From: Nitrospirota bacterium
GTDB lineage: Bacteria > Nitrospirota > JACRHJ01
Assembly (NCBI GenBank): GCA_016212105.1
Contig: JACRHJ010000013.1
Span: 46,782 to 110,781 of the forward strand
Length of the DNA: 64,000 nt
Direction of reading: 5' to 3'
Part shown: positions 4,387 through 59,046 of the stretch, one piece after another
How positions within the stretch are numbered: position 1 is the first letter of the stretch
How the letters are laid out: the number at the start of each line of letters is the position of its first letter
The notes under the pieces: model-generated
What the model was told of the DNA's origin: nothing
What the model saw: the letters and a program-made list of their open reading frames with translations, nothing else
Database searches by the model: none
Translations under genes and position numbers: made by a program

Positions 4387-5955
4387 CTACTCCCACTCAA
4401 TAGTAGACGGCGGCTTCGACGAAATATCGTAGCACACCCGGTTCACGCCCTTTATCTCGTTTATTATCCGGTTCGATATCACGCCAAGCAGGTCGTACGG
4501 CAGACGCACCCAGTCGGCGGTCATCCCGTCCTTGGAGTTCACGGCACGCAGCGCGACGACGTTCTCGTATGTCCGCTCGTCGCCCATGACGCCGACGGTA
4601 CGAATGGGCAGCAGCACCGCGAACGACTGCCATATCTCCCTGTACAGACCCGCCTTCTTTATCTCCTCCAGGACGACCGCGTCCGCCTCGCGCAGTATGC
4701 GAAGACGCTCCGCGTTTACCTCGCCGAGTATGCGTATGGCAAGCCCCGGGCCGGGGAACGGCTGACGCCAGATTATCTCGTCCGGCATCCCGAGCTCCTT
4801 GCCAAGCTCCCTGACCTCGTCCTTGAACAGCTCGCGGAGCGGCTCGACAAGCTTCAGCTTCATCTTCTCCGGCAAGCCCCCGACGTTGTGGTGGGACTTT
4901 ATGATGGCAGACGGGCCTTTGAGCGACACGCTCTCGATTACGTCCGGGTAGAGCGTACCCTGCGCGAGGAACTCCGCCCCTTCGACCTTCGCAGCCTCGG
5001 CCTCGAACACCTCTATGAACGTCGTGCCGATAATCTTGCGCTTCTTCTCCGGGTCTTCCACTCCCGCCAGCCTGGACAGGAACGTCTCGGAGGAGTCCAC
5101 GTACTTGAGGTTCAGGCCCATCTGCGCGTAGGTCTCCGGCACCCGCTCCGCCTCGCCCTTCCTCAGCACGCCGTTGTTTACGAATATGCAGGAGAGCTGG
5201 TCGCCGATGGCCCTGTGCACGATGACCGCCGCGACCGAGGAGTCCACGCCTCCGGACAGCGCACATATCACCTTCCGGTCGCCGACCTGCTCTCGTATGA
5301 TGCCGACCGCGTAGTCTATGAAGCTGCCCATGTCCCAGGTCGGTTCGCAGCCGCAGATGCCGAACAGGAAGTTCTTGAGTATCTGGAAGCCCTGCGGCGT
5401 GTGTACGACCTCCGGGTGGAACTGCACGCCGTAGAAACGGCGCGCCTTATCCGCCATCGCCGCGGTCGGGGAGTTGTCCGTGTGCGCGACCGGCCCGAAG
5501 CCCTCCGGCATCCGCTCAATCCTGTCGCCGTGCGACATCCAGACCACTGTGCTGCTCGCGGACTCGCCCTCGCCTATGCCGCCGATCGCCTTGAGGAGGT
5601 CCGACTCGTCGTCGATAAGAAGCTCCGCCCGGCCGTACTCGCGCTTGGCCGCCTTGGCGACCTCCCCGCCAAGCAGGTGGGTCATGAGCTGCATCCCGTA
5701 GCATATGCCGAGCACCGGGACTCCGAGGTCCAGGTGCTCCTTCGAGATGAGCGGCGCGCCGTCGTCGTAGACGCTTGACGGGCCGCCGGAGAGTATCAGG
5801 CCTTTGGGGTTGAACGCACGCACCTTCTCGATACCCGCGTTGTACGGCATTATCTCGCAGTAGACCTTCGCCTCCCTGACCCTGCGCGCGATGAGCTGGG
5901 TGTACTGTGAACCGAAGTCGAGTACGAGTACCCTTTGCTGGTGTATGTCTGACAA
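4387..5955 (-). CDS. guaA: GMP synthase (glutamine-hydrolysing)
   Basis: [28 protein letters not shown]..., GATase and ATP-PPase (SGGVDSS) motifs, C-terminus ...[11 protein letters not shown] start at 5955 with GGAGG 8 nt upstream. Confidence 0.95.
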
Positions 5956-5959
5956 GACG

Positions 5960-6277
5960 TTGACCTCCGGTAATTAATTGTGCGGGCGCGGTTTTTCGCG
6001 CCCTTCCAAACTGTAGGGGCCGACCGTCGTGTCGGCCCTTGCGGTTGTTATTATGTAGGGGCGGGCCTCCGTGCCCGCCCTTGCGGTTTATTTGTTCGTC
6101 ATTCCCGCGAAGGCGGGAATCCAGGAAGTTGTAGGGCGCGACGCCCCCGGCGCGCCGGAATAAGGTGCGGGCGCGGAATCCGCGCCCCTACAATATTCAT
6201 ATACAGGCAGATTCTTCGCTTCGCTCAGAATGACACCAAAGAGGGCGGGCACGGGGACCCGCCCCTACATAAAATCC
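5960..6277. repeat. Intergenic mosaic of short hairpin repeat modules (families F, C, D, A, E, F, J, D)
   Basis: tgtaggggccgaccgtcgtgtcggccc; tgtaggggcgggcctccgtgcccgccc; gtcattcccgcgaaggcgggaatcc; tgtagggcgcgacgcccccggcgcgcc; ttcgcttcgctcagaatgacacc; gggcgggcacggggacccgcccctacataaaa. All recur elsewhere in the window. Confidence 0.85.
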
Positions 6278-6361
6278 AAATCCCCCTCATTCCCCCTTTT
6301 TCAAAGGGGGAGGTCAGGTCTTGTCCCCACTTTGTAAAAGGGGGGACTACAGGGGGGATTT
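6278..6361. repeat. 84-bp TIR-bounded hairpin element (copy 1), MITE-like; direct repeat of 6954..7038
   Basis: aaatccccctcattccccctttttcaaagggggaggtcaggtcttgtccccactttgtaaaaggggggactacaggggggattt. Terminal inverted repeats AAATCCCCC/GGGGGGATTT and an internal hairpin ccccctttttcaaaggggg. Confidence 0.75.
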
Positions 6362-6368
6362 GCCTTCC

Positions 6369-6854
6369 TCACTCGTCCTTCAGCTTGAAGTCCGTCCCGC
6401 CCTGGTCGTCGCCGGCGCGCGCCTCCCATACAAGCTCCAGCATGCTGCCGGGGTGGTATATCTCAAGCACCTTCTTCGAATGCCCTCCGGCGGGAAGCGT
6501 GAAGACCCCGACCTTGAAGGACTTCCCGTCCATGCCGATGCTGAACGTGTACTCGTGCCCCGCCGGGAGCCGGACGTGGAACAGGCCGTCGTCCTGGTTT
6601 ATCTCGGCCGTGCGCCTGAAGTCCCCGGCCACGAATAACGCAAGCAGCGGCCCCTTGTGGGGAGTGCCGTACTCGGAGCAGAGCGTCCTGCCGAGCAACT
6701 GGACAGACTCGGCAGTCTCGGCGTCCGTCTTCTCCTCCGTGCACGGGGGCGGGATGTCGTCGATAATGACCGGGCCGGTCGTGGCCGCGTGCGCGGTCAG
6801 CGCGAAGAGCACCAGTGTGGACAGGATTACCAATAGCGCGAACTTGTACATCAT
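6369..6854 (-). CDS. Secreted hypothetical protein (signal peptide MMYKFALLVILSTLVLFALTAHA), flanked by two copies of an 84-bp element
   Basis: Clean 161-aa ORF with host-like GC and an N-terminal signal peptide; no family recognised. Confidence 0.6.
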   Translation of the reverse strand: MMYKFALLVILSTLVLFALTAHAATTGPVIIDDIPPPCTEEKTDAETAESVQLLGRTLCSEYGTPHKGPLLALFVAGDFRRTAEINQDDGLFHVRLPAGHEYTFSIGMDGKSFKVGVFTLPAGGHSKKVLEIYHPGSMLELVWEARAGDDQGGTDFKLKDE

Positions 6855-6953
6855 ACTGCAACTCCATACGTCGAGTCCGTCATTCCCGCTGGTGCGGGAA
6901 TCCAGGAACTTTACTGTTAGCAGTGACCGGTGATGATCATGCCCGGCCTCTTT

Positions 6954-7038
6954 AAATCCCCCTCAATCCCCCTTTTTCAAAGGGGGAGGCTTATGCATTG
7001 TCCCCACTTTGAAAAAGGGGGGACTACAGGGGGGATTT
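6954..7038. repeat. 84-bp TIR-bounded hairpin element (copy 2)
   Basis: aaatccccctcaatccccctttttcaaagggggaggcttatgcattgtccccactttgaaaaaggggggactacaggggggattt. About 85% identical to copy 1, same orientation. Confidence 0.75.
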
Positions 7039-7052
7039 GCTTTTCTCTCCCC

Positions 7053-7475
7053 TCACACCAGCTCCTTGCCCGTCGTCGCCATGCTCAGCTTGCCGTGCAC
7101 GACGCCCTTCGTCCCGATCATCCGGTCGGCAATCCTCTTGACCACCGAGGCCTTGCCGCGCACGACCATCACTTCGAGGCAGTTGTGCTCGTCCAGGTGC
7201 ACGTGCAGGTTAGATATTATCGCGTGGTAGAAGTGGTGCTGGAGGTCGTTCAGGGTGTCCGACAGCTCTCGCGTGTGGTGGTTGTACACGAGCGTGATCG
7301 TACCGACCACCTCCTGGTCCTCCTCCCACTCCCGGCCGACGAGCGCGTCCCGTATCAGGTCGCGTATCGCCTCGGAGCGGTTGGTATAGCCCTTCTCGGC
7401 GGTGAACCCGTCGAACCGGTCCATCAGCTTCTTGTCTATGGAAATCGCAATGCGTGTCAGGTCTTTTCCACCCAA
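7053..7475 (-). CDS. nikR: Nickel-responsive regulator NikR (RHH + ACT-like metal-binding domain)
   Basis: [16 protein letters not shown]...[16 protein letters not shown] (ribbon-helix-helix); C-domain H-rich ([20 protein letters not shown]). TTG start at 7475 with GGAGGG 9 nt upstream. Confidence 0.85.
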
Positions 7476-7518
7476 GGCCGTCCGCCCTCCGAAACCGGTT
7501 AATTTCAGCTATGCCGTT

Positions 7519-7547
7519 TATTATGTATGCTTAGGATTTCAAGTCAA
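7519..7547 (-). promoter_or_regulatory. Putative sigma70 promoter for nikR (TTGACT-17-ATAATA on minus strand)
   Basis: Minus strand reads cTTGACTtgaaatcctaagcatacATAATAaacgg, upstream of nikR. Confidence 0.35.
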
Positions 7548-7629
7548 GAAAAAAATGCCGGGGCCGCAACCATATTGGCGATGATGCGCATAAAATACAG
7601 CGTTAGTTGAACAATCCGCCAGAATTAAC

Positions 7630-7659
7630 TTGACATTAAAAGTACGGTATTGCTATTCT
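7630..7659 (+). promoter_or_regulatory. Putative sigma70 promoter for the ApbE-like gene (TTGACA-18-TATTCT)
   Basis: aacTTGACAttaaaagtacggtattgcTATTCTatg; divergent from the nikR promoter. Confidence 0.35.
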
Positions 7660-7731
7660 ATGTTATACGTTTTCGAAGTCAAGAACAGGGCCGGATAAAC
7701 TTCCCCCCGCTGTTCAGGGGCAGGACGCGGT

Positions 7732-8460: not shown

Positions 8461-8948
8461 GGTGGGCTACGCCCCACCATTGCATATTGGATTTTGGTTC
8501 ACTGTAGGGCGCGACGCCCCCGGCGCGCCGAGGGTTGTCATTGCGAGGAGTCCCGCGCTTCGCGGGACGACGCGGCAATCTCCACCATAATAATACAAAC
8601 GGAGGAGGTTGCTTCGCTCCGCTCGCAAAGACAGATAATAACATGAAGGGCCGACACACGGGTCGGCACCTACATAAAAGCATGGCGGGCAATGCACGCC
8701 CTACAACTAATGTTGCAGGGGGCCGTACCAGGCGAAGCGCGTGTCAGCCCAACCTGTCACCCCCGTGAAAACGGGGGTCCATTTTAACCTTGCGCGGGAA
8801 AATGGATTCCCGCTTTCGCGGGAATGACAACCTTGAAAGGTCTGTCATGGCGGGCAATGCCCGCCCTGCAACTTCCTGGACCCCGTGTCAAGCACGGGGC
8901 GACAAGCATAATCCGTCATTCCCGCGAAGGCGGGAATCCAGGAATTTT
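8461..8948. repeat. Intergenic mosaic of hairpin modules (G, E, C, G-like, B, A, G-like, H, A)
   Basis: tgtagggtgggctacgccccacc; tgtagggcgcgacgcccccggcgcgccg; gggccgacacacgggtcggcacctacataaaag; gtcacccccgtgaaaacgggggtcc; ggattcccgctttcgcgggaatgac; ccccgtgtcaagcacgggg; gtcattcccgcgaaggcgggaatcc. Confidence 0.85.
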
Positions 8949-8979
8949 CACGAACACGAAACACGAACACGAAACACGG
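8949..8979 (+). promoter_or_regulatory. CA-rich tandem element (cgaacacgaaaca x2) occupying the SD position upstream of the FmdE-like gene; a second copy lies upstream of the GT2 gene at 58786..58806
   Basis: cacgaacacgaaacacgaacacgaaacacgg ends 12 nt before ATG 8991 with no SD in between. A 21-nt near-identical copy sits 13 nt before the ATG of the minus-strand gene 57888..58772. Confidence 0.4.
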
Positions 8980-10410: not shown

Positions 10411-10735
10411 TGTAACTTCCTGGGCTCCGTGTCAAAGCCTGCCCTGAGCCCCGGCTTTATGCATACCGGGGTAAACTCCGCCGAATGGGCACGGGGAGAC
10501 ACCAAAAGCCTGTCATTCCCGCGAAAGCGGGAATCCAGCGACGTTGCTTTTATCGTACCATTGAGAAAGGCAGGGCCGACACACGGGTCGGCCCCTACAT
10601 AAAAACAGAACCTTCGGCGCGCCGGGGGCGTCGCGCCCTACGAAATACCGCAGTGGGGGCCACACAGAAGTTCTTGGGCCGCCTTCTTACAAGAAGGCGG
10701 GACTTGTATCGTTAAAGCTGGCGTTTCTCATGCGC
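10411..10735. repeat. Intergenic mosaic (H with nested N insertion, A, C, E, K)
   Basis: ccgtgtcaaagcctgccctgagccccggctttatgcataccggggtaaactccgccgaatgggcacgggg; gtcattcccgcgaaagcgggaatcc; gggccgacacacgggtcggcccctacataaaaac; ggcgcgccgggggcgtcgcgccctac; agttcttgggccgccttcttacaagaaggcgggactt. Confidence 0.85.
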
Positions 10736-10772: not shown

Positions 10773-11237
10773 ATGCAGTTATCGACCAAGGGGCGGTATG
10801 CGGTCAGGGCTATGTTCGACCTGGCGTTTTATTCGCAGGGGGAGCCTGTCCCGCTGTCGAGGATATCGGAGCGGGAGGAGATATCGCTCCATTACCTTGA
10901 GCAGCTCTTCAACAAGCTCCGTAAGGGCGGCGTGGTCGAGTCCGTGCGCGGCCCGTCCGGCGGGTTCAAGCTTGCGAGGAAGCCCTCCGAGATCTCCGTG
11001 GAGGAGATAATCAGCATCGTCGAGGGTCCGATAGTCCCGGTCTCCTGCCTGGAGCACAAGGACAAGGACAGGGTCTGCCACAGGGCGGAGAAATGCGTCA
11101 CGTTCATCCTCTGGAAGCGGCTGGGCAAGAACATAACCGAGTTCCTGTCCTCGGTCACGCTCCAGGACCTGGTGGACGAGGCGAGGGAGCTTCTCGACTC
11201 CGGGAAGGTCACGCACGACTATATGTTCTACATATAA
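10773..11237 (+). CDS. Rrf2-family transcriptional regulator (IscR/CymR-like, Cys-containing)
   Basis: MQLSTKGRYAVRAMFDLA... wHTH, SGGFKL, Cys residues C92/C101/C107; adjacent to cysK. Confidence 0.85.
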   Translation: MQLSTKGRYAVRAMFDLAFYSQGEPVPLSRISEREEISLHYLEQLFNKLRKGGVVESVRGPSGGFKLARKPSEISVEEIISIVEGPIVPVSCLEHKDKDRVCHRAEKCVTFILWKRLGKNITEFLSSVTLQDLVDEARELLDSGKVTHDYMFYI

Positions 11238-11239
11238 GT

Positions 11240-11400
11240 TCTTGTGTCGCCCCGTGCTTGACACGGGGTCCAGGAAGTTGTAGTTGCCCGATTTATCGGG
11301 CGGTTGTCAATGCAGGGCCGACACGCGGGTCGGCCCCTACATAAAAACAAGAACTTCCTGGATTCCCGCCTTCGCGGGAATGACGGCTATACTTGCAATA
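11240..11400. repeat. Intergenic mosaic (H, O, C, A)
   Basis: ccccgtgcttgacacgggg; ttgcccgatttatcgggcgg; gggccgacacgcgggtcggcccctacataaaaac; ggattcccgccttcgcgggaatgac. Confidence 0.8.
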
Positions 11401-14887: not shown

Positions 14888-15140
14888 CTCGTTTGCCTTT
14901 ATGTAGGGGCAGGTCCCCGTGCCTGCCCTGCCTGTCACCCCCGCGAACGCGGGGGTCCGGTGACTTGGTTCCGGGCTTGTTTCTTGATTGACGAAAGTCC
15001 CTGGATTCCCGCTGGAGTTTACCCCGGTACTCCTAAGGCCGGGGCGGGAATGACGTTCAACTAAAACGTGAATTGCCGTACCTTTTCTTAACTCACAAAA
15101 GTTCTTGGGCCGCCTTCTTTCAAGAAGGCGGGACTTTGTT
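14888..15140. repeat. Intergenic mosaic (D, B, A with nested N insertion, K)
   Basis: tgtaggggcaggtccccgtgcctgccc; gtcacccccgcgaacgcgggggtcc; ggattcccgc[tggagtttaccccggtactcctaaggccgggg]cgggaatgac; aagttcttgggccgccttctttcaagaaggcgggactt. Confidence 0.85.
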
Positions 15141-20124: not shown

Positions 20125-20410
20125 TCCAGATTTGACACCCGCCGATTCCTCCGGTAATATTTATTCAACCCGCCGGGTTGTCATTCCCGCGAAAGCGGGA
20201 ATCCATTGGAAAAGCATAAAGCCAAAATGGACCCCCGTTTTCACGGGGGTGACAATCAAGGGATAAGTAGTAGGGTGGGCTGCGCCCACCAATAATAATC
20301 GGTGGGCATAGCCCACCCTACATGTTCGAGGTCTTTGTAGGGCGCGACGCCCTCGGCGCGCCGAGCCGTCAGACGATCGGTGCATAGCCCACCCTACATA
20401 TACAGGAGCG
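20125..20410. repeat. Intergenic mosaic (A, B, G, E, G)
   Basis: gtcattcccgcgaaagcgggaatcc; ggacccccgttttcacgggggtgac; tagggtgggctgcgcccacc...ggtgggcatagcccaccctaca; tgtagggcgcgacgccctcggcgcgccg. Confidence 0.85.
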
Positions 20411-23943: not shown

Positions 23944-24068
23944 GGTGCGACGCCCCCTCAAGCCGATTGTCATTCCCGCGAAAGCGGGAATCCATTGTAA
24001 TGGCCGAGTCAAATTGGACCCCCGTTTTCACGGGGGTGACAGGCAGGGCCGACACACGGGTCGGCCCC
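23944..24068. repeat. Intergenic mosaic (E-like, A, B, C)
   Basis: tgtagggtgcgacgccccc; gtcattcccgcgaaagcgggaatcc; ggacccccgttttcacgggggtgac; gggccgacacacgggtcggcccctacatgaaag. Confidence 0.85.
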
Positions 24069-24071
24069 TAC

Positions 24072-24710
24072 ATGAAAGCAAGAAGATACACCTTGCCCGA
24101 AGACGCCTACAACATAGAATCCGGCGAGGACAAGGCCTGGCGCGAGCTGGCCGCCGCCGGCCCGGAGTCGGTCGTGAAGCGGAGCCTCGCTGCCTACGAC
24201 GCCGCGTCCGGCAGCTACACCCTGACTGTCTTCGGCGAGGAGTACCTCGTTTCACCCGCCACGCGGACCATATCCAACCTCTCAAACCCGTCACGCGCTG
24301 ACGAAATCCTGCTACGCCTCGCTGTACCCGTCTACCTCGTGAACGCCCGCGCGGTTGAGCCGTCCGGCGTGCTGGTCAAGGAGTTCACCGGCGGCGAGAT
24401 ATTCCTCAAGGGCACACACGTCCTGCCGACGGACGAGATAGCGAAGAAGTACGGAAGCGACGGTGATTATTTCCTGAGGGCGGGGATGGCGGAGCTTGGC
24501 GGAGCGCCGGTGAGGCTGGGTGATGCGGCAATCGGGTTCAGGCCGTTCCCGCGCGTCTCGATGACGATGATACTCTGGCTCATGGACGAGGAGTTTCCCG
24601 CGCGGGCGAGCCTTCTCTTCGACGGAAACGCGGACAGGCACATGCCTATTGACGTGGTCTGGGCGGCCGCCCTGCTGGCGTGTGAGAGGATGCTGAAGAT
24701 CCTGAATTAA
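24072..24710 (+). CDS. Hypothetical protein (212 aa)
   Basis: ATG 24072 immediately after the repeat block. Host-like GC; no family recognised by eye. Confidence 0.55.
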   Translation: MKARRYTLPEDAYNIESGEDKAWRELAAAGPESVVKRSLAAYDAASGSYTLTVFGEEYLVSPATRTISNLSNPSRADEILLRLAVPVYLVNARAVEPSGVLVKEFTGGEIFLKGTHVLPTDEIAKKYGSDGDYFLRAGMAELGGAPVRLGDAAIGFRPFPRVSMTMILWLMDEEFPARASLLFDGNADRHMPIDVVWAAALLACERMLKILN

Positions 24711-24716
24711 TATCAG

Positions 24717-25322
24717 TTAAGATATAACCGTTGATTTAAATGCACTTTGAATGTCTTCGATAAACTTCTTGAAACTATTATCTCGTTTTGATGCGAGTTT
24801 TACATCCATTTCTTTTGCTAAATCTCCTCCGTATTCGGCCCCGCCTCTACGTGGCCTTATCCCGCCAGCAATAAAGGCATCCCTCAACATCTTTTTGTAA
24901 ACATCCTTCTCGCATTTTCCAAGTTGCGGGGTATCGGGGGTAGGTATGTTGCCGACCGTCGCCAATGCTTTGCAATCCAATAAATACCAGCACTCGATAT
25001 GTGGCTCTGGTAAAGCCAGGACAAGCGGTGTCAATCCTAATGCATCGCCGGTCTCTTTTTCTACAAGTTTTCGTTTTCCGTTATAGCCAGAACAATTGGC
25101 ATCAACCGAAACCACGACAACATCGTATTTTATAGCACGGCCTATTTTCAACCCGCTCAAATACCGATAGTAGGTCCCCAACGATGCACCTTTTTGATCG
25201 TTAAGGACAACTATTTCGATAGCAATTTTCTTATCGGCGGCGACTCGTTCGATTAAACCGCAGATTATTTCTTTCTGCGCGATGTCCTCCAGAAACACGG
25301 CGACTCGAAGAATTCTACCCAC
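24717..25322 (-). CDS. DUF4276-family protein (TOPRIM/OLD-like, AbiLii-like) in a low-GC island
   Basis: GRILRVAVFLEDIAQKE (N-terminal acidic strand), DVVVVSVDAN (DxD-like), HIECWYLLD (E-x-W motif). Preferred start is GTG 25322 with GGAG 6 nt upstream, overlapping the upstream stop by 8 nt; TTG 25364 and ATG 25358 are alternatives. GC ~45%. Confidence 0.65.
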   Translation of the reverse strand: MGRILRVAVFLEDIAQKEIICGLIERVAADKKIAIEIVVLNDQKGASLGTYYRYLSGLKIGRAIKYDVVVVSVDANCSGYNGKRKLVEKETGDALGLTPLVLALPEPHIECWYLLDCKALATVGNIPTPDTPQLGKCEKDVYKKMLRDAFIAGGIRPRRGGAEYGGDLAKEMDVKLASKRDNSFKKFIEDIQSAFKSTVIS

Positions 25323-26619
25323 CGTAAACTCCGGTCGCAAAGTTCTCTTCGAGCGCATCGTCAATCTCTTGTTTCATGAATAATTCACCAAATGTGCTGA
25401 ACGGCATGATTTGCGTTCTCTGGTTTTCCCAAAGGCTTACAAATAGCTGCTCCGATTCGAAACAACGCGCAAATATGGGGGAATGCGTTGTTATGATTAC
25501 CTGCTTCTGCATCGTCTCAACATATTCAATAAACCAGTCGGCAAGCAGTTGAATCCTGCGGGGATGTACGCCGTTTTCCGGTTCTTCGTAGCCAACTACA
25601 TTCGCAGGTTTCAGGGCGGATAGTATGCTGGCGATACCAATAATCCGGAGAGTACCCTCCGAGACTACCCTTGCGGTCCTTTCCCCGTCTTCTTCCGTAA
25701 CGTGAAGCAGGAGCTGCCCATCTTTAGTACGCTCGATGAGGATATCCTTAACCCTCGGCAATACCTGGGCAAGTGATTTCACCAATGAAGCGAACTGCTT
25801 GGGATTTTCTGCTTCGAGAGTATTTAGAAACGCCGTCAGATTTTCTCCTCGGCTGCCAATGTTTTTCACTTCTGAAATTGGATTTGCCGCCCGCATGATT
25901 TCACGGGGTTCAAAATAATAGAACGCCCATTTTTCCATCTCCCGCTTTGCAAGGCTCATATGCTGATAATGTGGTAAATACAAAGGCGTTGATAGAATTG
26001 TATGGTCTATACCGACATCAAAATATCTGGGATGCGCCTGACCCTCCATGCGTAGCGAAAGTTTACCATTTGATTTTCCAACAAACGGGTTCCGGCTTTT
26101 TAAGGTTTCAGTGAAATCTTTTCGTAATGCTTCCAGCTTTTCATCGAATACACCTATGTTACCGGACTTCAAGTCTACCCTCAGTACAAGTCTGTATCTA
26201 AGTTGCCTGCAAAGTGCAATCCTTTCCTGCGGTGTTGAATCAAATTGAACGTCACCGTGCAGTTCATGCTTAATGTCATCTTTGCTATCGATGTACGGCT
26301 TGCGAATAGCCTTTATTTCTTCTTTAAGTTCTTTTTCCGTATCTTCATCAATCTCAAGGTCGACCTCGAAAGTTATGTCTCTGCTTCCGTATTCATCGGA
26401 GGGGGTCCAGCCGTAAATACACTCTAGTGGTAATCCCCTATGAGAGGAAAAAGCCTTAGTCAGGGTGGGGTTGGTAACAGTGCTTGAGAGCAGGGCCAAA
26501 GCGTCGAGCAGGTTACTTTTGCCCGTGGCGTTCGGCCCCATGATAACGGCAAGCGGGCCGATAGTCAGTTCGAAATCCTTGAACGACTTGTAACCGTCAA
26601 TATAAATGCGTCTTATCAT
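25315..26619 (-). CDS. AAA_21/AAA_15-type ABC ATPase (OLD/AbiLi-like)
   Basis: MIRRIYIDGYKSFKDFELTIGPLAVIMGPNATGKSNLLDAL (Walker A); VVGYEEPENGVHP (Walker B/D-loop); H-loop ITTHSP. Start set at ATG 26619 by the family N-terminus (ORF track gives 26676). GC ~45%. Confidence 0.8.
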   Translation of the reverse strand: MIRRIYIDGYKSFKDFELTIGPLAVIMGPNATGKSNLLDALALLSSTVTNPTLTKAFSSHRGLPLECIYGWTPSDEYGSRDITFEVDLEIDEDTEKELKEEIKAIRKPYIDSKDDIKHELHGDVQFDSTPQERIALCRQLRYRLVLRVDLKSGNIGVFDEKLEALRKDFTETLKSRNPFVGKSNGKLSLRMEGQAHPRYFDVGIDHTILSTPLYLPHYQHMSLAKREMEKWAFYYFEPREIMRAANPISEVKNIGSRGENLTAFLNTLEAENPKQFASLVKSLAQVLPRVKDILIERTKDGQLLLHVTEEDGERTARVVSEGTLRIIGIASILSALKPANVVGYEEPENGVHPRRIQLLADWFIEYVETMQKQVIITTHSPIFARCFESEQLFVSLWENQRTQIMPFSTFGELFMKQEIDDALEENFATGVYGG

Positions 26620-26701
26620 ATTTGCATGCCTTTTCCATCGGTAAACCTGAGAGAATGCCGTCGCCAAGTACGACATGCTATCGGAAACCTTCCGCCACCC
26701 C

Positions 26702-29104: not shown

Positions 29105-29300
29105 CGGCCCTCGTTGATTCTGGTTTATGTAGCTGCCCGATTCATCGGGCGTTTTTAATAGCGCCCACAACTGAGCGGGTTACAACTGTTTGTCACCCCC
29201 GTGCAAACGGGGGTCCATTTTGACGTTATTCATGAAAATGGATTCCCGCTTTCGCGGGAATGACGATATCGAGAGTTGGCGCGGGAACTATCCCTGCCAA
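29105..29300. repeat. Intergenic mosaic (O, B, A)
   Basis: ctgcccgattcatcgggcg; gtcacccccgtgcaaacgggggtcc; ggattcccgctttcgcgggaatgac. Confidence 0.8.
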
Positions 29301-36961: not shown

Positions 36962-39859
36962 CTACTTGTATTCTATGCCGTAGATCTGCTTCATCATCTT
37001 CCGCACGCCCTCGTAGTCCGAGTCGGAAGACTTGACGAAGCCGTCGTACTCCGGGTCTATCGCCCGGAGCGCCTTCGCGGCGGCGGGGTCCGTGACCTTC
37101 ATGGCGGCCAGCGCCTCCCGCAGCTGCTCCCGCGTTGCCTTGTCCAGGTTCTTGCCGGCGACAACGTTGAAGTTCGGGATGTCTCCGGAGACGTGTACCA
37201 CGCGGAGCCCCTCCTCCTGGTGCTGCCTGGCGATGGACACCGCCATGCCGCCGGCGTCCGCGTCGCCCTCCAGCACCGCCCTGACCACCTCGTCCTGGCG
37301 GTGCATGTACTTGTATGACTTGAGGTCCTGGAGCTTGATCCCGGCCTCTGCCAGCACCGCCCTCGGCATCAGGTGCGAGGTCGAGGACTTCTCGTCCCCG
37401 AACGCGAACGTCCTGCCGGCGACGTCCGCGAGCGAGTTAACGCCGCTGCCCTCTCGCGTCGCGATCACCGAGTTCGTGGACGGGCGGCCCTTGGCGGACG
37501 CGGTGACGAGCACCTTTGCCCCGAACTTGTGCCTCGCCTCGACGTACGTTGTCGGGCTCATGTAGCAGATGTCCGTCCTGCCCTGCCCGAGGTCGTTCAC
37601 GGTCTCCGACATGTCGTGGCCGGCCACCACCTCGACCTTGACCCCGAGCCTGTCGGACAGGTACTCGGCGAGCGGGGTGAAGTGCCTCCTCATCGCTGAC
37701 GCGTCCTCTATCGGTATCACGCCCATCCGGAGCGTCTTGTCCGCGAGGTTGTATTCCGACATCAGCACGAAGTGGTTTATCTCCTCCCTGAGGACGTCTG
37801 CCTGCCTGGTCAGCTCCGTGACTGACTGGTCCATCTCGGACGCGAGCGTTACGGACTGAGCGGTTATGTCCCTTATCTTCTCTATCGCGCCTACTATCTC
37901 CTGGCTGCCCTTCCTCTGCTCGGACGTCGCGGAGGCTATGTGCTGCACCTTCTCGGAGACGTTCTCGACCGCCATCGTGATCTGCTTGCTGCCCTTGGCC
38001 TGCTCGGCCATCGCGTTACGCACCTGCTTGGCTATCTCGCTCATCTTCTCCGAGGCCATCATTATCTGCTCGGTGCCCTTCGCCTGCTCCTGCGTCGCCT
38101 TGAGTATGTGCTGCACCATGTCGCTGATGGACAGCATCGCGTCCGAGACCTGGCGTATCCCCTCGGCCTGCTCGACCGTCGCCTTCTCGATGCCCTTCGA
38201 CATGCTGGCCGACTTCGACGACGACTCGACTATCTTGACCAGCGCGTCCTTTGCCTCGTATGCTATCTTAACGCCCTGCTCGACGCTGTCGCGGCCGCTC
38301 TTTATGGACACGACCGCGTCCCTCGCCTCGGTCTGGACCGCGCCGATTAGCTTCGCTATCTCGGACGTGGACGAGGACGTCCGCTCCGCCAGGTCCTTTA
38401 TCTCGCTCGCCACGACCGCGAAGCCCTTGCCGTGCTCGCCCGCCTGGGCGGCGAGTATGGCCGCGTTAAGCGCGAGGAGCGACGTCTGGTCCGTGACCTC
38501 GTCGATGACGTTCAGTATCTCGCCTATCTCCTCCGAGCGGCCGCCGAGCTGCTCTATGACGTGCGCGGCCTTGACGACAGTGTCCTTTATCTCCTCCATG
38601 CCCTTTATGGTCTTCTCTACCGCCCTCATGCCGAGCTCAGACGCCTCGGCCGTGACCTTCTCGGACAGCCCGGTGGACTCTTTCGCCACCGACTCGACCT
38701 CCTTGATGGACGCGCCCATCTCTGTCGCGGACGCAGTGGTCTCCTCGGCCGCAGACGACAGGACGTCGACGTTCTCGGAGACCTGCCTGACCGTCGCGGC
38801 CATCTCCATGATGGAAGAAGACGTAGACTCGGTCGAGGCGGACAGGTCGTTCGTGATGCTCGCCACCTCGTCTATCGAGGCGGCCATCTCCATGATGGAA
38901 GAGGAAGACGACTCCGCGGAGGACGAGAGAGACTCGACGCTCTCCGCGACCTCGCGTATGGAGGCGTTCATCTCCTCCATCGACGAGGAAGTGGACTCCG
39001 TCAGCTCCTGCTGCACCAGCGCGCCCTCTGATATCTTCTTCGAGTTTATCGCTATCCGCTCTGTCGCGTTGGTCACGCTTATGGAGGCGTCCTTTACCTT
39101 GCCGAGCATGTTCTTGAGGTTCGCCACCATCGTGTTGATGGCGCCGCCGAGCGCGCCCAGCTCGTCCTCCGTCTTTACGTCTATGGTCTTGGTCAGGTCG
39201 CCCTTGGCGATCTGCGTCGCGGTCACCACGAGGTAGGATATCGGGTCCGTTATGAACCTCGTGATGAAGAACGTGAACGCGAAAATGGCGATGACCAGCG
39301 AGACGACGCCGATGAGCACCGACCTTTTCACAAGCTGGTCCTTCTTCGCGCCAAGCTCCTCGTAGCCGAGCCCCAGCCGGAGCGCGCCGATGTGCTTGTC
39401 CTCTGCGTCCTTGAGCGGTATGACGGCGTCGTAGTACTTCTTGTCCTTGTAGGTGAAGGTCCTGTACTTCCCCTCCTCCACCTCCTTGGCCGCAGCGGCG
39501 CTGACCGCGTCGTCCATAACCTTCCCGACCTGCCCCGGGTCGTCGGCGTAAAGCACCTTGCCGGCCGTGTCGGTGATGATGCAGTACCCGATGTTCTCGT
39601 GCTTCTGGGTAAGTACCATGCACTCGTCGCTCACGCCCTCCAGCGAGTCGAGCGTAAGCCCGAGGTTCAGCGCCTTGGACAGGTTGTTCCTGAACTCCTG
39701 CCCGACCACGAACGCCTTGTCCAGGAACGCGTCCGTGTAGCTGCTCGTGAACCCGTAGGTCAGCGCCACGGTCAGCAGTGTGACCACGAGCACCAGCATC
39801 CCGGTGACCATGCCGAGCGCCCTGAATTTCAGCGATTTAATGGTGAAGTCCAGCTTCAT
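36962..39859 (-). CDS. Methyl-accepting chemotaxis protein with a periplasmic sensor, HAMP, long MA domain and a C-terminal PhnD/SsuA-like substrate-binding (PBP) domain
   Basis: The periplasmic domain resembles the sensor of the kinase at 17447. MA domain ([34 protein letters not shown]). C-terminal ~270 aa: MGVIPIEDASAMRRHFTPLAEYLSDRLGVKVEVV...CYMSPTTYVEARHKFG...TFAFGDEKSSTSHLMP (phosphonate-binding-protein-like). Confidence 0.85.
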   Translation of the reverse strand: MKLDFTIKSLKFRALGMVTGMLVLVVTLLTVALTYGFTSSYTDAFLDKAFVVGQEFRNNLSKALNLGLTLDSLEGVSDECMVLTQKHENIGYCIITDTAGKVLYADDPGQVGKVMDDAVSAAAAKEVEEGKYRTFTYKDKKYYDAVIPLKDAEDKHIGALRLGLGYEELGAKKDQLVKRSVLIGVVSLVIAIFAFTFFITRFITDPISYLVVTATQIAKGDLTKTIDVKTEDELGALGGAINTMVANLKNMLGKVKDASISVTNATERIAINSKKISEGALVQQELTESTSSSMEEMNASIREVAESVESLSSSAESSSSSIMEMAASIDEVASITNDLSASTESTSSSIMEMAATVRQVSENVDVLSSAAEETTASATEMGASIKEVESVAKESTGLSEKVTAEASELGMRAVEKTIKGMEEIKDTVVKAAHVIEQLGGRSEEIGEILNVIDEVTDQTSLLALNAAILAAQAGEHGKGFAVVASEIKDLAERTSSSTSEIAKLIGAVQTEARDAVVSIKSGRDSVEQGVKIAYEAKDALVKIVESSSKSASMSKGIEKATVEQAEGIRQVSDAMLSISDMVQHILKATQEQAKGTEQIMMASEKMSEIAKQVRNAMAEQAKGSKQITMAVENVSEKVQHIASATSEQRKGSQEIVGAIEKIRDITAQSVTLASEMDQSVTELTRQADVLREEINHFVLMSEYNLADKTLRMGVIPIEDASAMRRHFTPLAEYLSDRLGVKVEVVAGHDMSETVNDLGQGRTDICYMSPTTYVEARHKFGAKVLVTASAKGRPSTNSVIATREGSGVNSLADVAGRTFAFGDEKSSTSHLMPRAVLAEAGIKLQDLKSYKYMHRQDEVVRAVLEGDADAGGMAVSIARQHQEEGLRVVHVSGDIPNFNVVAGKNLDKATREQLREALAAMKVTDPAAAKALRAIDPEYDGFVKSSDSDYEGVRKMMKQIYGIEYK

Positions 39860-44003: not shown

Positions 44004-46871
44004 CTACTGTATCCTCCGCACCATCTCCCTGACGCCGTCGTAGTCCGAGTCGCGGGACTCTATGAAGCCGGTGTAGTCCTTGTCGAGCGACGTGAGGATG
44101 AGCTTCTCCTCCGCGGACCTCGGCGAAAGCGAGGTGAGCGCGAGCTTCAGCTTGTCGGCGAGGACGGTGTCGAGGCCCGGCCTCGCGCAGAAGTTGAACT
44201 CCGGTATGTCGTCGGAGGTCTTTATGAACCGGAGGCCCTTCTCCTTGTACTGGTTCGCGGTGGTCTCCCTGAGGCCGCCCGCGTCCAGCTCGCCCAGGAG
44301 CACCGCCTTGGCCACGTCGTCGTGGTGGCCCAGGAAGCGGTACTCCCTGAGGTCCGTAAGCTTGACGCCCGCCTTGGCGAGCATGTAACGCGGCACCAGG
44401 TAGCTGGACGTGGACATCTCGTCGCCAAAGGCGAACGTCCGCCCCTTCAGGTCCTCGATGCGCTTGACGTCGCTGTCCTGCCTCGTGACTATCATCGTGT
44501 GGGTGTACGGGACGCCGTTCCTCATCGCCTTCGCGAGGAGCGACACTCCGTAATGCTCGTGCGCCTCTATGTACGTCGTCGGCGTCATGTAGCAGATGTC
44601 CGCGACCCCCGTGCCGACGTCCTTTACCGCGTCCGTGAACGACGAGGTGAGCTTGAAGACCACCTCGCGCCCGACCCTGCGGGAGAGGTACGCCGCGAGC
44701 GGCGAGAACTTCTTGTACATCTGGGCCGGGCTCTCCAGCGGCACCAGGCCGAGCTTGATTATCTCGGAGCCGGCCCCGGTAATCCTGAATGTGCCGACCT
44801 CGTCCTTCAGCTCCTCAATGTGCCTGGCGAGTTCCTCGACCGCGAGGCCCATCTCGGAGGCCAGCGTCTCGTTCTCGAGCGCGACGTCCCTGATGCGCTC
44901 GACCGAGCGGACCATGTCCTCGCTGCCCTTCCTCTGCTCGTTAATCGCGTTCGCTATGTGCTGGGCCTGCTGGTTGGTGTTCTCGACCGCCATTATTATA
45001 AGGTCGGAGCCCTTGGACTGCTCGGCGGTCGCGGTCCGTACGTGCCTCGCCACCTCCTTGACCTTGTCCGCCTCGCGCAGTATCTGGTCGGAGCCCTGCG
45101 TAAGCTCGGACGTCGCCCGCTGTATGGACTGGACTATGTCCCTGGTGTTGACCATCGCCTCGGCGACACGCTTGGCGCCCTCCGCCTGCTCCATCGTCGC
45201 GTCCTCTATCCGCTTGGACATCTCGGAGGACTGCGCCGACGACTTCACTATACCCTCCAGCACGTCCTTGGCCTGGTAGACGACGGCCTGGCCCTCCTCG
45301 ACCGCGGCCTTGCCGGACTCCATCGCCTGCACCGCCTCGGAGGCCTCGGCCTGGACGGTGGCGATGAGCTTGGAAATCTCCTGCGTGGACGACGCGGTCC
45401 TCTCCGCCAGGTCCTTTATCTCGTCAGCGACCACCGCGAATCCCTTGCCGTGCTCGCCCGCCTGGGACGCGAGTATGGCAGCGTTCAGCGACAGAAGCTC
45501 CGTCTGGTCGGTGACCTCGTCTATGACGTTCAGTATCTCGCCTATCTGGCGCGAGCGGCCGCCGAGCCGGTTGATGACCTCAGCCGAGCGGTTGACCTCG
45601 TTCTTGATCTTGCTCATTCCCTCGATGGCGCGCTCCATCGCCCCCATACCGAGCCTCCGGGCGTCGGTCGTGACCTTCTCCGAGAGCTGGGCCGACTCCT
45701 TGGCCGCGCCCTCGACGTCCCTGATGGAGTTCGCCACACGCGTGATTGACTCCACGCTCGTGTCGGCCGCGTCCGACAGGACTCCGACGTAGCGCGAGAC
45801 CTCACGGATGGACGCGGTTATCTGGCTGATGGACGAGACGGTCGAGTCTACCGAGGACGACAGCACCGCCGCGCTCCCCGCGATCTCGTCTATCGAGGCG
45901 GTCATCTCCAGTATCGAGGACGACGTGGACTCAGCCGAGTAGTACAGGCTGTCCGCGGACTCCGCTACGCCCTTTATCGAGGCGTTTATCTCCTCGATGC
46001 CGCCGGACGAGGACTCGACCGCGCGCGCCTGGACGTGCGCGCCCTCCGCCACCTTTGCAGAGTTGACGACTATCTGCGTAGAGACCGAGCCGACCTGGTA
46101 GCTCATCCGGTTTATCCTCTGGACGACCCTCTGGACGCTGTCTATGAAACTGTTGAAGCTCCCGGCGAGCTGCCCCATCTCGTCCTTCGACCCGGACTCC
46201 ATGCGGTATGTGAGGTCCTTGTCCCTCTCCATCTGTGTCATGACGCCGACCGCCTTCTCTATCGGTGAAAGCACGACTCTCCTGAGCCAGAGCGCGAGCA
46301 GGAGCGCGACAAGCGCGATCGCGGCAAACGCGTTCAGTATCGCCATGAGCTTGTGGTCCTTGATGTCGGCGTAGACCTTCTCGAGCGAGACGGATACGGC
46401 GAGGACGCCCTGGTACTTGTGGTCGCTCCCGTGGCAGCCCTGGCAGCTCTCCTCGTTCACGAGCGGCTTGAAGAGCGTCAGCGACCGCTTGTCCTTCAGC
46501 TCGGAGACGATGCCCGTCGCGAGCGCCTCCCTCACCCTTGCTTCGACGTCGGCGGGCGGGTCGGGGTAGCCCGCGTCGAGGTATATCTCGTCGCCGTCCT
46601 TGTTGAAGACGCGGACCTCCTTTATGCCGGACACAGTCCTCAGCTCCGAGACCATACCGCTCGCGGACTCCGGCTGGCCGGTGTTCATGACCGTCTTCAT
46701 ACTCGATATGATGGCCGAGGCCAGAAGCTCCGTCTTCGAGTGGTTGGCGGCGAGCAGCTCGGTCTCCTCCTTCTGGAGCGTCATGTATACGAGGAGCCCG
46801 AACCCGCCCATGAGCGTGGCCACGACTATCGCTATAATCTTGGTCTGCATGCGGCTGATGAACATTTTCAC
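44004..46871 (-). CDS. Methyl-accepting chemotaxis protein with a heme-c (CXXCH) periplasmic sensor domain and a C-terminal PhnD/SsuA-like PBP domain
   Basis: TM1 [19 protein letters not shown]; ~140-aa periplasmic domain containing SCQGCH (nt 46445..46431), DUF3365/Tll0287-like; TM2; HAMP; MA domain; C-terminal [35 protein letters not shown]...[16 protein letters not shown]. Paralogous to 36962..39859, with >85% nt identity across parts of the MA domain. Confidence 0.85.
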
Positions 46872-48584: not shown

Positions 48585-48855
48585 TACCTCGACTTCATGT
48601 AAAACAACCGCGAAAACCCCGCCTTCTTGTAAGAAGGCGGCCCAAGAACTTTTGTGAGATATTGTAGGGTGGGCATTGCCCGCCATGCTTTTATGCAGGG
48701 GCCGACCCGTGTGTCGGCCCCTGCCTGTCACCCCCGTGAAAACGGGGGTCCATGTTGACTTTATGCGTTACAATGGATTCCCGCTTTCGCGGGAATGACA
48801 ATACATCGTATAAAGGCGGATTCTTCGCTTCGCTCAGAATGACACCATTAAAACA
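48585..48855. repeat. Intergenic mosaic (K, G, C, B, A, J)
   Basis: ccccgccttcttgtaagaaggcggcccaagaactt; tgtagggtgggcattgcccgcc; tgcaggggccgacccgtgtgtcggcccc; gtcacccccgtgaaaacgggggtcc; ggattcccgctttcgcgggaatgac; ttcgcttcgctcagaatgacacc. Confidence 0.85.
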
Positions 48856-50844: not shown

Positions 50845-51170
50845 GAAATCTCCTGAAAGAATCTACGACAAAGTCCCGCCTTCTTGAAAGAAGGCGGCCC
50901 AAGAACTTCTAAACGGCTTCCGTGCGAAACTCGTCGTCCCGAGCGAAGCCGAGGGACCTGCTTTTATGTAGGGGCCGACCCGTGTGTCGGCCCTGACTCT
51001 TCATTAGATTTCGTAGTGGCCGGCCTCTGAATGGCCCGTATGGAGTCCGTGCCCTAAAATTATCGTGTCGCCCCGTGCTTGCCCTCCATTGTCACCCCCG
51101 TGAAAACGGGGGTCCATTTTGACCTTGTGCATTACAATGGATTCCCGCTTTCGCGGGAATGACAAGCGTT
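50845..51170. repeat. Intergenic mosaic (K, C, H, B, A)
   Basis: aagtcccgccttcttgaaagaaggcggcccaagaactt; tgtaggggccgacccgtgtgtcggccc; ccccgtgcttgccc; gtcacccccgtgaaaacgggggtcc; ggattcccgctttcgcgggaatgac. Confidence 0.85.
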
Positions 51171-56189: not shown

Positions 56190-56385
56190 CAGGTTTTATG
56201 TAGGGGCCGACCCGTGTGTCGGCCCTTCATTTGTCTTATGTCTTGTGTAGGGGCGGGTCCCCGTGCCCGCCCTGGTATTACCGGCGCGCCGGAGTGCCGC
56301 GCCCTGCAAATTCAAAGGCAAGGGCCGACACGACGGTCGGCCCCTACAATTTTGATGGGCGCGGAAAACCGCGCCCATAATCAAT
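56190..56385. repeat. Intergenic mosaic (C, D, E-like, C, F)
   Basis: tgtaggggccgacccgtgtgtcggccc; tgtaggggcgggtccccgtgcccgccc; gggccgacacgacggtcggcccctacaa; gggcgcggaaaaccgcgccc. Confidence 0.85.
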
Positions 56386-58809: not shown

Positions 58810-59046
58810 AAATCAAAACCGCCGGGCGCGGCTTTCGCGCCCGTTCCATTTGTAGGGGCCGACCTATGTGTCGGCCCTTCTTAATTATTTGTCGCCCCGT
58901 GCTTGACACGGGGTCCAGGAATTTTAAACTTCCTGGATTCCCGCCTTCGCGGGAATGACGGGCAAAGGCTGAGATTGCCGCGTCGCGTTGCTCCTCGCAA
59001 AGACAGGCAGGGCAGGGCGGGCACGGGGACCCGCCCCTACATAAAA
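58810..59046. repeat. Intergenic mosaic (C, H, A, P, D)
   Basis: tgtaggggccgacctatgtgtcggccc; ccccgtgcttgacacgggg; ggattcccgccttcgcgggaatgac; cgcaaagacagg; gggcgggcacggggacccgcccctacataaaa. Confidence 0.85.

Follow-up and report, generated by a model that had tools for sequence, protein, structure and literature searches.

The short repeats described as BoxC, PIT or triplex motifs have been known since the 1990s. Intrastrand triplex motifs are abundant and conserved in prokaryotes (Hoyne et al. 2000; Holder et al. 2015, PMC4666352). The closest described relative of the repeat examined here is TM_ECO of Escherichia coli, which is also called BoxC or PIT, has the form CCCTCNCCC-N3-6-GGGNGAGGG-N3-GGGNGAGGG, and forms a class II purine-motif triplex (PMC4666352). 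TM_ECO is always intergenic, measures about 35 nt, and carries one of two linker types, TTA or CCG; inverted pairs are present at five loci of E. coli K-12 and always consist of one of each linker type (PMC4666352). Strains of E. coli are reported to have between 1 and 29 copies of TM_ECO. In E. coli the motifs are located upstream of open reading frames (ORFs) more often than downstream, no promoter or terminator activity was found for TM_ECO/PIT in experiments, TM_ECO loci are unusually variable among strains, and no transposase, integrase or mobility function has ever been found near triplex motifs (PMC4666352). Here we have analyzed a 64,000-nt stretch of DNA from a member of the Nitrospirota (GenBank assembly GCA_016212105.1, contig JACRHJ010000013.1, positions 46,782 to 110,781; referred to as the window). 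In this stretch, two copies of an 84/85-bp repeat, copy A at 6278-6361 and copy B at 6954-7038, are found in the same orientation on either side of a gene encoding a 161-aa secreted protein.

Copies A and B are probably gene-less inverted pairs of a triplex-motif repeat family that extends across phyla. They would occupy two consecutive intergenic spacers, with the 161-aa gene an old resident of the locus and not the content of a cassette. This proposal is built on four observations: the anatomy of the copies, the mirror covariation within their units, the distribution of the units among bacteria, and the synteny of the gene. Although triplex motifs as a class are already known, the flanking of DUF559 nuclease genes by triplex-motif units that is described below is unreported in the literature that was searched.

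Anatomy of the two copies

The first-pass annotation of this DNA had described two direct copies of a hairpin element bounded by terminal inverted repeats (TIRs), and the coordinates and orientation that it gave were borne out far beyond chance. The 22-mer GGGGGGACTACAGGGGGGATTT occurs exactly twice in the window (0 expected, 100 shuffles), and the 19-mer core CCCCCTTTTTCAAAGGGGG, together with its near-copies, is confined to copies A and B (0.02 expected). The identity between the copies, initially put at about 85%, is 92% when determined by gapped alignment with one 1-nt indel (78 of 85 columns). Five of the seven mismatches fall within the central 7- to 8-nt spacer, and the longest perfectly matching blocks are 26 and 23 nt in length. 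The likeness extends 2 nt (GC) past the right end and is followed by a looser resemblance of the form GC-(C/T)TT-(C/T)CTC. Each copy folds into a single long hairpin (-48.8 and -50.5 kcal/mol, z = -5.0 and -5.6). No family was matched in an Rfam scan of the whole window at the gathering threshold, no match was obtained in a plasmid BLAST search with copy B, in which the low-complexity filter may have masked the query, and a search of the literature for the literal repeat sequence gave no match.

Each copy consists of two ~34-nt units that are inverted relative to each other and separated by a short spacer. On the C-rich strand, a unit comprises AAATCCCCC, a linker of 4-6 nt, (T)CCCCCTTT, a 3-nt loop and AAAGGGGG(A), which on the opposite strand corresponds to CCCCCTTT, the loop, AAAGGGGG, the linker and GGGGGATTT. 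The left halves of the copies have five C and the linker TCAT or TCAA, and the right halves have six C, the linker ACTACA and one A/G mismatch in the stem. Four such three-block units are present in the window, all of them in copies A and B, against 0-1 in shuffled sequences. The inverted termini that had been noted do exist, but the presumed TIRs are the third-strand blocks of two motifs, placed outermost in each copy; the internal hairpin is also present, yet it is found twice per copy, in inverted orientation. Features private to both copies are the ACTACA linker, the CCCCACTTT mismatch and the GAGG…TTGTCC edges of the spacer, and because these are shared, copies A and B are likely to have a common origin within this genome.

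The pyrimidine leader of a unit and the 5' arm of its hairpin are related by mirror symmetry. The leader was compared with the mirror and with the direct copy of the arm in distinct units with an interrupted C-run, taken from all loci. It was closer to the mirror of the 5' arm in 59 distinct informative units and to the direct copy in 3, and these units represented at least seven arm variants. When the leader is interrupted by a T, the 5' arm has its own T at the mirrored position, as in TCTCCCC-TAA-CCCCTCT, TCCCTCC-…-CCTCCCT and TCCTCCC-…-CCCTCCT. We know of no copying process that yields mirror repeats, and a simple hairpin constraint would not be expected to produce them either. A mirror pyrimidine/purine block beside a Watson-Crick hairpin is, as far as sequence can tell, the design of an intramolecular triple helix, and mirror covariation in this second, cross-phylum family is comparative evidence in favor of selection on the three-block design.

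Holder et al. (2015) define a triplex motif as a pyrimidine block, a complementary purine block and a mirroring third block on one strand, with a stem of 6-15 nt (one mismatch allowed above 7) and loops of 1-6 nt. The four units of the window fall within these limits: their stems measure 8-9 nt, the first loop 3 nt and the second 4-6 nt, and units 2 and 4 have one stem mismatch each. Both copies are intergenic, and both pair a unit with a TCAT or TCAA linker with a unit with an ACTACA linker; pairing of two linker types is also found in other genomes. By these criteria, each 84/85-bp copy is a "palindromic" inverted pair of predicted intrastrand-triplex motifs of the BoxC/PIT/TM_ECO class, in a separate sequence family with G5-6/A3 stems. 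The G-rich strand would be predicted to form eight or nine triplets of the types G·G-C, A·A-T and T·A-T. As the third block (GGGGGATTT, or AAATCCCCC on the other strand) is a mirror of the arm, it could serve as a third strand within the hairpin groove.

Related units and DUF559 genes in other genomes

A scan for the exact 19-mer core, with one genome per species, identified at least 120 genome stretches from many bacterial phyla. Members of the Desulfobacterota, Omnitrophota, Betaproteobacteria, Gammaproteobacteria, Chloroflexota, Ignavibacteria, Binatia, Deinococcota and other taxa harbor the core, and cultured hosts include Lysobacter, Pseudoxanthomonas, Iodobacter and Thiothrix. The core was also found in 48 viral or prophage contig stretches. 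The element is a genuine structured repeat, dispersed over many genomes, and to this extent the initial view of it is supported. In nearly all of the stretches listed, AAATCCCCC and a short linker precede the core, the linker (CTAGC, CTGC, TAA, CGG and others) being the most variable part of the unit. Copy B is matched at 100% identity over nucleotides 1-37 (6954-6990) in Sulfuricella (loci L075 and L111; L numbers designate sequences from other genomes), a betaproteobacterial metagenome-assembled genome (L060) and Pseudoxanthomonas (L030), and likewise over nucleotides 1-36 in L068 (Binatia), L027, L015 and L012. Over nucleotides 1-37, copy A has 97% identity with units in L068, L114, L092, L066, L027 and L012. 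Units elsewhere are arranged as singlets, as convergent pairs like those of the window (spacers of 10-120 nt) or as divergent pairs (…GGGGGATTT, 8-50 nt, AAATCCCCC…); they are mostly scattered in intergenic DNA and are found in all contexts. On one viral contig (L240:1030-1640), a 448-bp tandem duplication includes a complete unit pair, which shows that pairs can also multiply by local segmental duplication.

Clustering of the ORFs from the 120 core-selected loci brought out one small family, found in four unrelated genomes (L018, L029, L099 and L103), whose genes are located directly between units in all four cases. The family is DUF559 (Pfam, 1.7e-35). Its nearest solved structure is that of the endonuclease-like protein 3HRL, and DUF559 has been grouped with Vsr and a group I intron homing endonuclease (Steczkiewicz et al.). 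Residues D52, E63, D65 and H69 are invariant among the DUF559 proteins and are candidate catalytic positions. As an independent test, 80 metagenome loci (L125-L204) were picked by DUF559 protein similarity alone. With a strict detector, a unit in the orientation hairpin-linker-GGGGGATTT was found to end 3-45 nt before the DUF559 start in 47 of the 75 assessable loci. On the downstream side, a AAATCCCCC-linker-hairpin unit was found in 56 of 73, where it either overlapped the 3' end of the gene or started no more than about 30 nt beyond the stop codon; units were present on both sides in 37 of 68. A looser detector placed a unit within 200 nt of the gene in 55 of 62 loci. The background in these loci is 0.2-0.3 units per kb, with an estimated expectation of about 2% per flank.

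The downstream unit of a DUF559 module starts within about 0-10 nt of the stop codon. In the commonest layout, seen in 24 loci, the gene has a single unit per side. A full pair is present on one or both sides in about 25 loci; three loci have the layout of the window, with pairs to the left and right and DUF559 replacing the 161-aa gene. Within a module, the stems of the two flanking units frequently differ in sequence, and each unit keeps its own mirror leader. Flanking by units in a fixed orientation was also observed in L018, L029, L099, L103 and L249, and the CAAAGTGGGG mismatch variant found in unit 2 of the window also stands beside a DUF559 gene in L181. No target-site duplications were evident when the flanks of modules with single-unit ends were read.

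In L152, L156, L171 and L181, the third-strand block GAGGGGGATTT (GAGGTGGATTT in L181) abuts the ATG of the DUF559 gene. The block could double as a ribosome-binding site, coupling folding of the motif to translation of the nuclease. In E. coli K-12, the DUF559 gene ycjD (L205:11030-11840, fabI-ycjD-sapF) has a BoxC-like sequence over its 3' end and a complete TM_ECO about 170 nt downstream, with a duplicated fragment of the ycjD 3' end between them. This arrangement around ycjD is found in 3343 of 5426 complete E. coli genomes; in the rest (about 38%), the region diverges at a point about 45 nt away from the TM_ECO motif. ST131 has a larger replacement in this region (TetR and RND genes), and the comparison says nothing clear about the mobility of DUF559. 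No paper linking DUF559 or YcjD with BoxC or triplex repeats was found in the literature searched.

The relationship between DUF559 and the units is an association and not a mechanism; we infer from it that the nuclease might cut at the motif, or that the units might act as ends or homing sites. This raises the possibility, which we rate as somewhat short of even, of a compact (~0.45 kb) selfish element that has spread across bacterial phyla, with the units as its two ends or its homing site and with the gene for the DUF559 nuclease, a Vsr-like PD-(D/E)XK enzyme, as its sole gene. Solo units and pairs, including those of the window and by extension BoxC/TM_ECO, would then be non-autonomous relics. 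If this is true, a selfish DUF559 element supplies the mobility function that earlier work on triplex repeats sought and did not find. The association, which is strong and specific in orientation, turns the spread of these repeats into a testable biochemical question, namely, whether cleavage by the nuclease takes place at the motif or beside it.

The enclosed gene and its genomic setting

On the minus strand, the gene order is nikR, copy B, the 161-aa gene, copy A, a 320-nt mosaic of hairpin repeats and guaA (Table 1). The stop codon of the 161-aa gene (6369-6371) is 7 nt from copy A, and its start codon (6852-6854) is 99 nt from copy B. That the copies flank a real gene for a protein with a signal peptide, as first proposed, is supported by a G+C content at third codon positions (GC3) of 0.89, which is like that of the neighboring genes (real genes of the window, which has a G+C content of 62%, have GC3 values near 0.88), by an N-terminal signal-peptide-like helix and by the existence of homologs. 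The protein has no Pfam match. Its structural model (predicted local distance difference test score of 78) is a beta-sandwich; a structure search was tried as a clue to function and set aside, as the matches were generic beta-sandwiches only.

A protein search returned three proteins, one identical to the 161-aa product and two homologs with 48% and 44% identity, and two further homologs (45% and 32%) were found upstream of the closest guaA genes, whose products are 84-88% identical to GuaA of the window. In four of five related lineages (L121/L122, L124, L255/L256 and L259), guaA is directly preceded by a homolog on its own strand, and an unrelated gene is found at this position in the fifth (L257). 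The 84-bp element is absent from all of these related Nitrospirota lineages. Because homologs are maintained upstream of guaA without the element, the 161-aa gene is an old resident around which the repeats arrived. The gene on its other side varies, with nikR here and a transporter gene or a divergent 396-aa gene in the relatives. The spacer upstream of guaA holds a TM_ECO-like inverted pair in L121 (6530-6640) and a single CCCCTCCCCC/GGAGGGG/GGGGAGGGGG motif in L257 (3830-3880), and since these two loci carry other triplex motifs there, this spacer appears to have been colonized repeatedly. Most simply, the bracket around the 161-aa gene would be the by-product of two separate occupancies of consecutive spacers, with the gene as a bystander.

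The 161-aa protein ends three residues short of its homologs (…DFKLKDE versus …DFKVKDAQQK; window 6369-6380). An insertion at the very 3' end of the gene would fit both the early C terminus and the presence of the repeat 7 nt past the stop codon.

The intergenic spacers of the window are packed with at least eight other families of short palindromic repeats in a mosaic arrangement. Examples are GTCATTCCCGC-N4-GCGGGAATCC (12 copies), TGTCACCCCCGTGAAAACGGGGGTCC and repetitive extragenic palindromes (REPs) headed by GTAG (TGTAGGGGC…). Mosaic spacers are found at 5983-6276, 8503-8978, 10489-10712, 11235-11395, 14893-15139 and 20176-20365, and further ones are found at 23966-24084, 29190-29271, 48618-48852, 50865-51170, 56194-56376 and 58823-59048. 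The spacer adjoining copy A resembles a bacterial interspersed mosaic element (BIME).

TABLE 1 Features of the repeat locus and its neighbors (coordinates of the window)
Feature	Position	Strand	Composition or evidence
guaA (GMP synthase)	4387-5955	-	Pfam; conserved downstream neighbor of the 161-aa gene (synteny)
Spacer between copy A and guaA	5956-6277		BIME-like mosaic: GTAG-headed REPs, GTCATTCCCGC unit, other hairpin repeats
34-nt unit, G-rich strand			CCCCCTTTGAAAAAGGGGGATTGAGGGGGATTT
Unit 1, left half of copy A	6278-6311	+	C-rich strand is +; detected as mirror-leader hairpin unit
Unit 1, third-strand leader	6278-6286		AAATCCCCC
Unit 1, linker	6287-6290		TCAT
Unit 1, pyrimidine arm	6291-6299		TCCCCCTTT
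Unit 1, loop	6300-6302		TTC
Unit 1, purine arm	6303-6311		AAAGGGGGA
Central spacer of copy A	6312-6323		GGTCAGGTCTTG; sole strongly diverged part between copies (alignments)
Unit 2, right half of copy A	6324-6361	-	G-rich strand is +
Unit 2, pyrimidine arm	6325-6333		CCCCACTTT (one A/G mismatch)
Unit 2, loop	6334-6336		GTA
Unit 2, purine arm	6337-6345		AAAGGGGGG
Unit 2, linker	6346-6351		ACTACA
Unit 2, third-strand domain	6352-6361		GGGGGGATTT
161-aa secreted-protein gene	6369-6854	-	Signal peptide, low-confidence linker, beta-sandwich; ORF, homologs
Unrelated REP-like hairpin repeat	6879-6906	+	GTCATTCCCGC-N4-GCGGGAATCCAGG; between copy B and gene start; one of 12 window copies
Unit 3, left half of copy B	6954-6987	+	Sequence and unit detection
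Unit 3, leader	6954-6962		AAATCCCCC
Unit 3, linker	6963-6966		TCAA
Unit 3, arm	6967-6975		TCCCCCTTT
Unit 3, loop	6976-6978		TTC
Unit 3, arm	6979-6987		AAAGGGGGA
Central spacer of copy B	6988-7000		GGCTTATGCATTG (alignments)
Unit 4, right half of copy B	7001-7038	-	Sequence and unit detection
Unit 4, arm	7002-7010		CCCCACTTT
Unit 4, loop	7011-7013		GAA
Unit 4, arm	7014-7022		AAAGGGGGG
Unit 4, linker	7023-7028		ACTACA
Unit 4, third-strand domain	7029-7038		GGGGGGATTT
nikR (140 aa)	7053-7475	-	Pfam NikR_C 1.8e-31 and RHH_1; stop 7053-7055, 14 nt from copy B

A mechanically called ORF of 317 aa (5980-6933, plus strand, GC3 of 0.73) spans the mosaic, copy A and the antisense strand of the 161-aa gene, and its translation includes peptides encoded by the repeats (for example, IPLIPPFSKGE). 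This ORF does not represent a gene and presents a risk of mis-annotation; annotators should treat neither the ORF as a gene nor the pair of repeats as transposon ends. Elsewhere in the window, a two-gene island at 24717-26676 (minus strand) has a GC3 of 0.44-0.49, versus about 0.88 for the window's genes, and was probably acquired horizontally. Its genes code for a 453-aa AAA_15/AAA_21 ATPase, with a match to the PADLOC candidate defense protein HEC-01A (1e-54), and for a 215-aa partner without matches. Two ORFs of ~960 aa at 36962-39859 and 44004-46871 (both minus strand) share an 883-bp repeat and belong to a chemotaxis cluster (CheW, CheR and CheB nearby); the former encodes a methyl-accepting chemotaxis protein with a phosphonate-binding periplasmic domain (Pfam).

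Alternative explanations and comparison with known systems

We propose that inverted pairs have come to occupy the spacers behind nikR and the 161-aa gene, at distances of 14 and 7 nt from the respective stop codons. Judging from the private ACTACA linker and the CCCCACTTT mismatch, the pairs would have been copied within this genome. The DUF559 nuclease gene, which bears these units at both ends in other bacteria, may have some connection with the copying mechanism, in which case the window copies would at best be gene-less derivatives of a DUF559 module, and the effect of the pairs on the host is probably neutral or mildly destabilizing. Several points weigh against this proposal. DUF559 was not detected in the window by six-frame hmmsearch, and no DUF559 gene stands there between …GGGGGATTT and AAATCCCCC… units. 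The central 7-8 nt of copies A and B are unrelated, which is awkward for a simple copy-and-paste of whole pairs. The whole pair folds equally well as a plain long hairpin in a Watson-Crick computation, and the TM_ECO triplex formed in single-stranded oligonucleotides only, with none detected in duplex DNA or in dimethyl sulfate (DMS) footprinting in vivo (PMC4666352). Finally, both copies are located just past stop codons in the same orientation, and this could point to a function for the host.

Such a function, which would be compatible with a selfish origin, is unlikely in our view, but of the alternatives it survives best. The copies would act as terminators, or as REP/BIME-like protectors of RNA 3' ends, for nikR and the 161-aa gene. 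The two genes are co-directional, with the pairs 7 and 14 nt past their stops, the hairpins are very stable on either strand (-49 to -50 kcal/mol), an A-tract precedes the stem and a T-tract follows it, and the downstream unit of DUF559 modules is likewise close to the stop codon. However, an intrinsic terminator would be a G+C-rich hairpin with a short loop and a T-run directly behind it, and here there are only 3-4 T in the 8 nt after the stem; a terminator scan of 5900-7700 calls five sites, including neighboring REP-type hairpins, and none at copy A or B. The occurrence of units in all contexts in other genomes also argues against this function, as do the inactivity of PIT/TM_ECO as promoter or terminator and the preference of the E. 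coli motifs for positions upstream of ORFs (PMC4666352).

We consider it very improbable that the copies delimit a cassette or composite element, as the first-pass annotation had suggested, in which recombination between the copies, or an enzyme specific to the element, would excise, duplicate or move the 161-aa gene. The direct repeats, with their 92% identity and perfect blocks of 26 and 23 nt, suit such a unit, and recombination between the 85-bp copies is physically possible at low frequency (longest perfect block of 26-28 nt). The layout of pair, gene and pair does recur in other genomes, for example, in L099, L181 and L152, but the gene there encodes a DUF559 nuclease and not the 161-aa protein, and most DUF559 modules have single units, not pairs, at each end. 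A mobile cassette would be variably present among relatives or relocated together with its repeats, whereas the 161-aa gene is syntenic with guaA in four of five lineages that lack the element. Moreover, its GC3 is that of the host, and the similarity of A and B stops at the ends of the element. The check for the element elsewhere, which returned mostly scattered intergenic singlets and pairs, largely defeats the idea of a composite unit.

Two readings in terms of known mobile repeats have almost no credibility. In the first, the copies are doublets of the REPIN type, moved by a REP-associated tyrosine transposase (RAYT). The right half does contain CTAC, which reads GTAG on the opposite strand (TGTAGT being the linker in units 2 and 4), GTAG-headed REPs are numerous in the window, and the doublet architecture is similar. 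In the family as a whole, however, GTAG is not conserved and lies in the variable linker, where it was seen only in the linker from this genome, and the REP/RAYT model provides no role for the third mirror block. This reading was rejected on the position of GTAG and on the result that no Y1-transposase domain was found among the 28 window proteins scanned with Pfam, roughly a third of the window ORFs being outside the scan. In the second, the copies are ordinary miniature inverted-repeat transposable elements (MITEs) of an insertion sequence with a DDE transposase and TIRs at its ends. A MITE would likewise have inverted termini, measure about 85 bp, lie between genes and be present in multiple copies, but the flanks show no target-site duplication at either the window copies or the single-unit DUF559 modules, no transposase with matching ends was found, DUF559 being the only associated gene, and covariation of the presumed TIRs as mirrors of the internal arms is not predicted by a model in which TIRs bind a transposase. 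A G-quadruplex or i-motif was dismissed, as no more than three G-runs and three C-runs are present per strand of a pair, and nuclear magnetic resonance had excluded a quadruplex for TM_ECO (PMC4666352).

Comparison with described systems places the pairs closest to the triplex motifs. Integron cassettes and composite transposons have in common with this locus a gene bounded by repeated structured sites; here, in contrast, the gene is syntenic and resident, there is no integrase or transposase, and the repeats are not specific to the gene. The Correia/NEMIS, ERIC and RUP MITEs are also non-coding repeats of about 100 bp with inverted ends and long hairpins beside genes, but the repeats described here are without target-site duplication or a cognate DDE transposase, and their ends mirror internal arms. 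REP, BIME and REPIN sequences are short intergenic palindromes that often form inverted doublets or mosaics, and true REP-like repeats share the same spacers of the window. The triplex family differs from them in having an extra mirror block and no conserved GTAG or CGTC tag, and the partner gene is that of a PD-(D/E)XK nuclease (DUF559) here and that of a Y1 HUH transposase in theirs.

Vsr and the Vsr-like (EDxHD) homing endonucleases, such as I-Bth0305I, are the characterized relatives of DUF559 (PMC3424549, PMC9403480). They share with it a small free-standing nuclease gene, the same fold clade and a patchy distribution across phyla, which is compatible with selfish spread. These endonucleases reside in introns and inteins and home into a coding target, whereas the DUF559 genes described here are located between two triplex-motif units in intergenic DNA. 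TM_ECO/BoxC/PIT of E. coli and about 260 proteobacterial genomes differs from the present family in its stem, which is GGGNGAGGG and here AAAGGGGG(G), with A/T triplets at the base. The host here belongs to the Nitrospirota, the family is found across many phyla, its triplex is a predicted one, and flanking of DUF559 genes is absent from PMC4666352. The two families nevertheless have the same design: three blocks, with a mirror third block after a 3- to 6-nt linker, in a unit of ~35 nt that is strictly intergenic, conserved across taxa and without a transposase nearby, that commonly occurs in a one-mismatch variant, and that brings two linker types together in inverted pairs.

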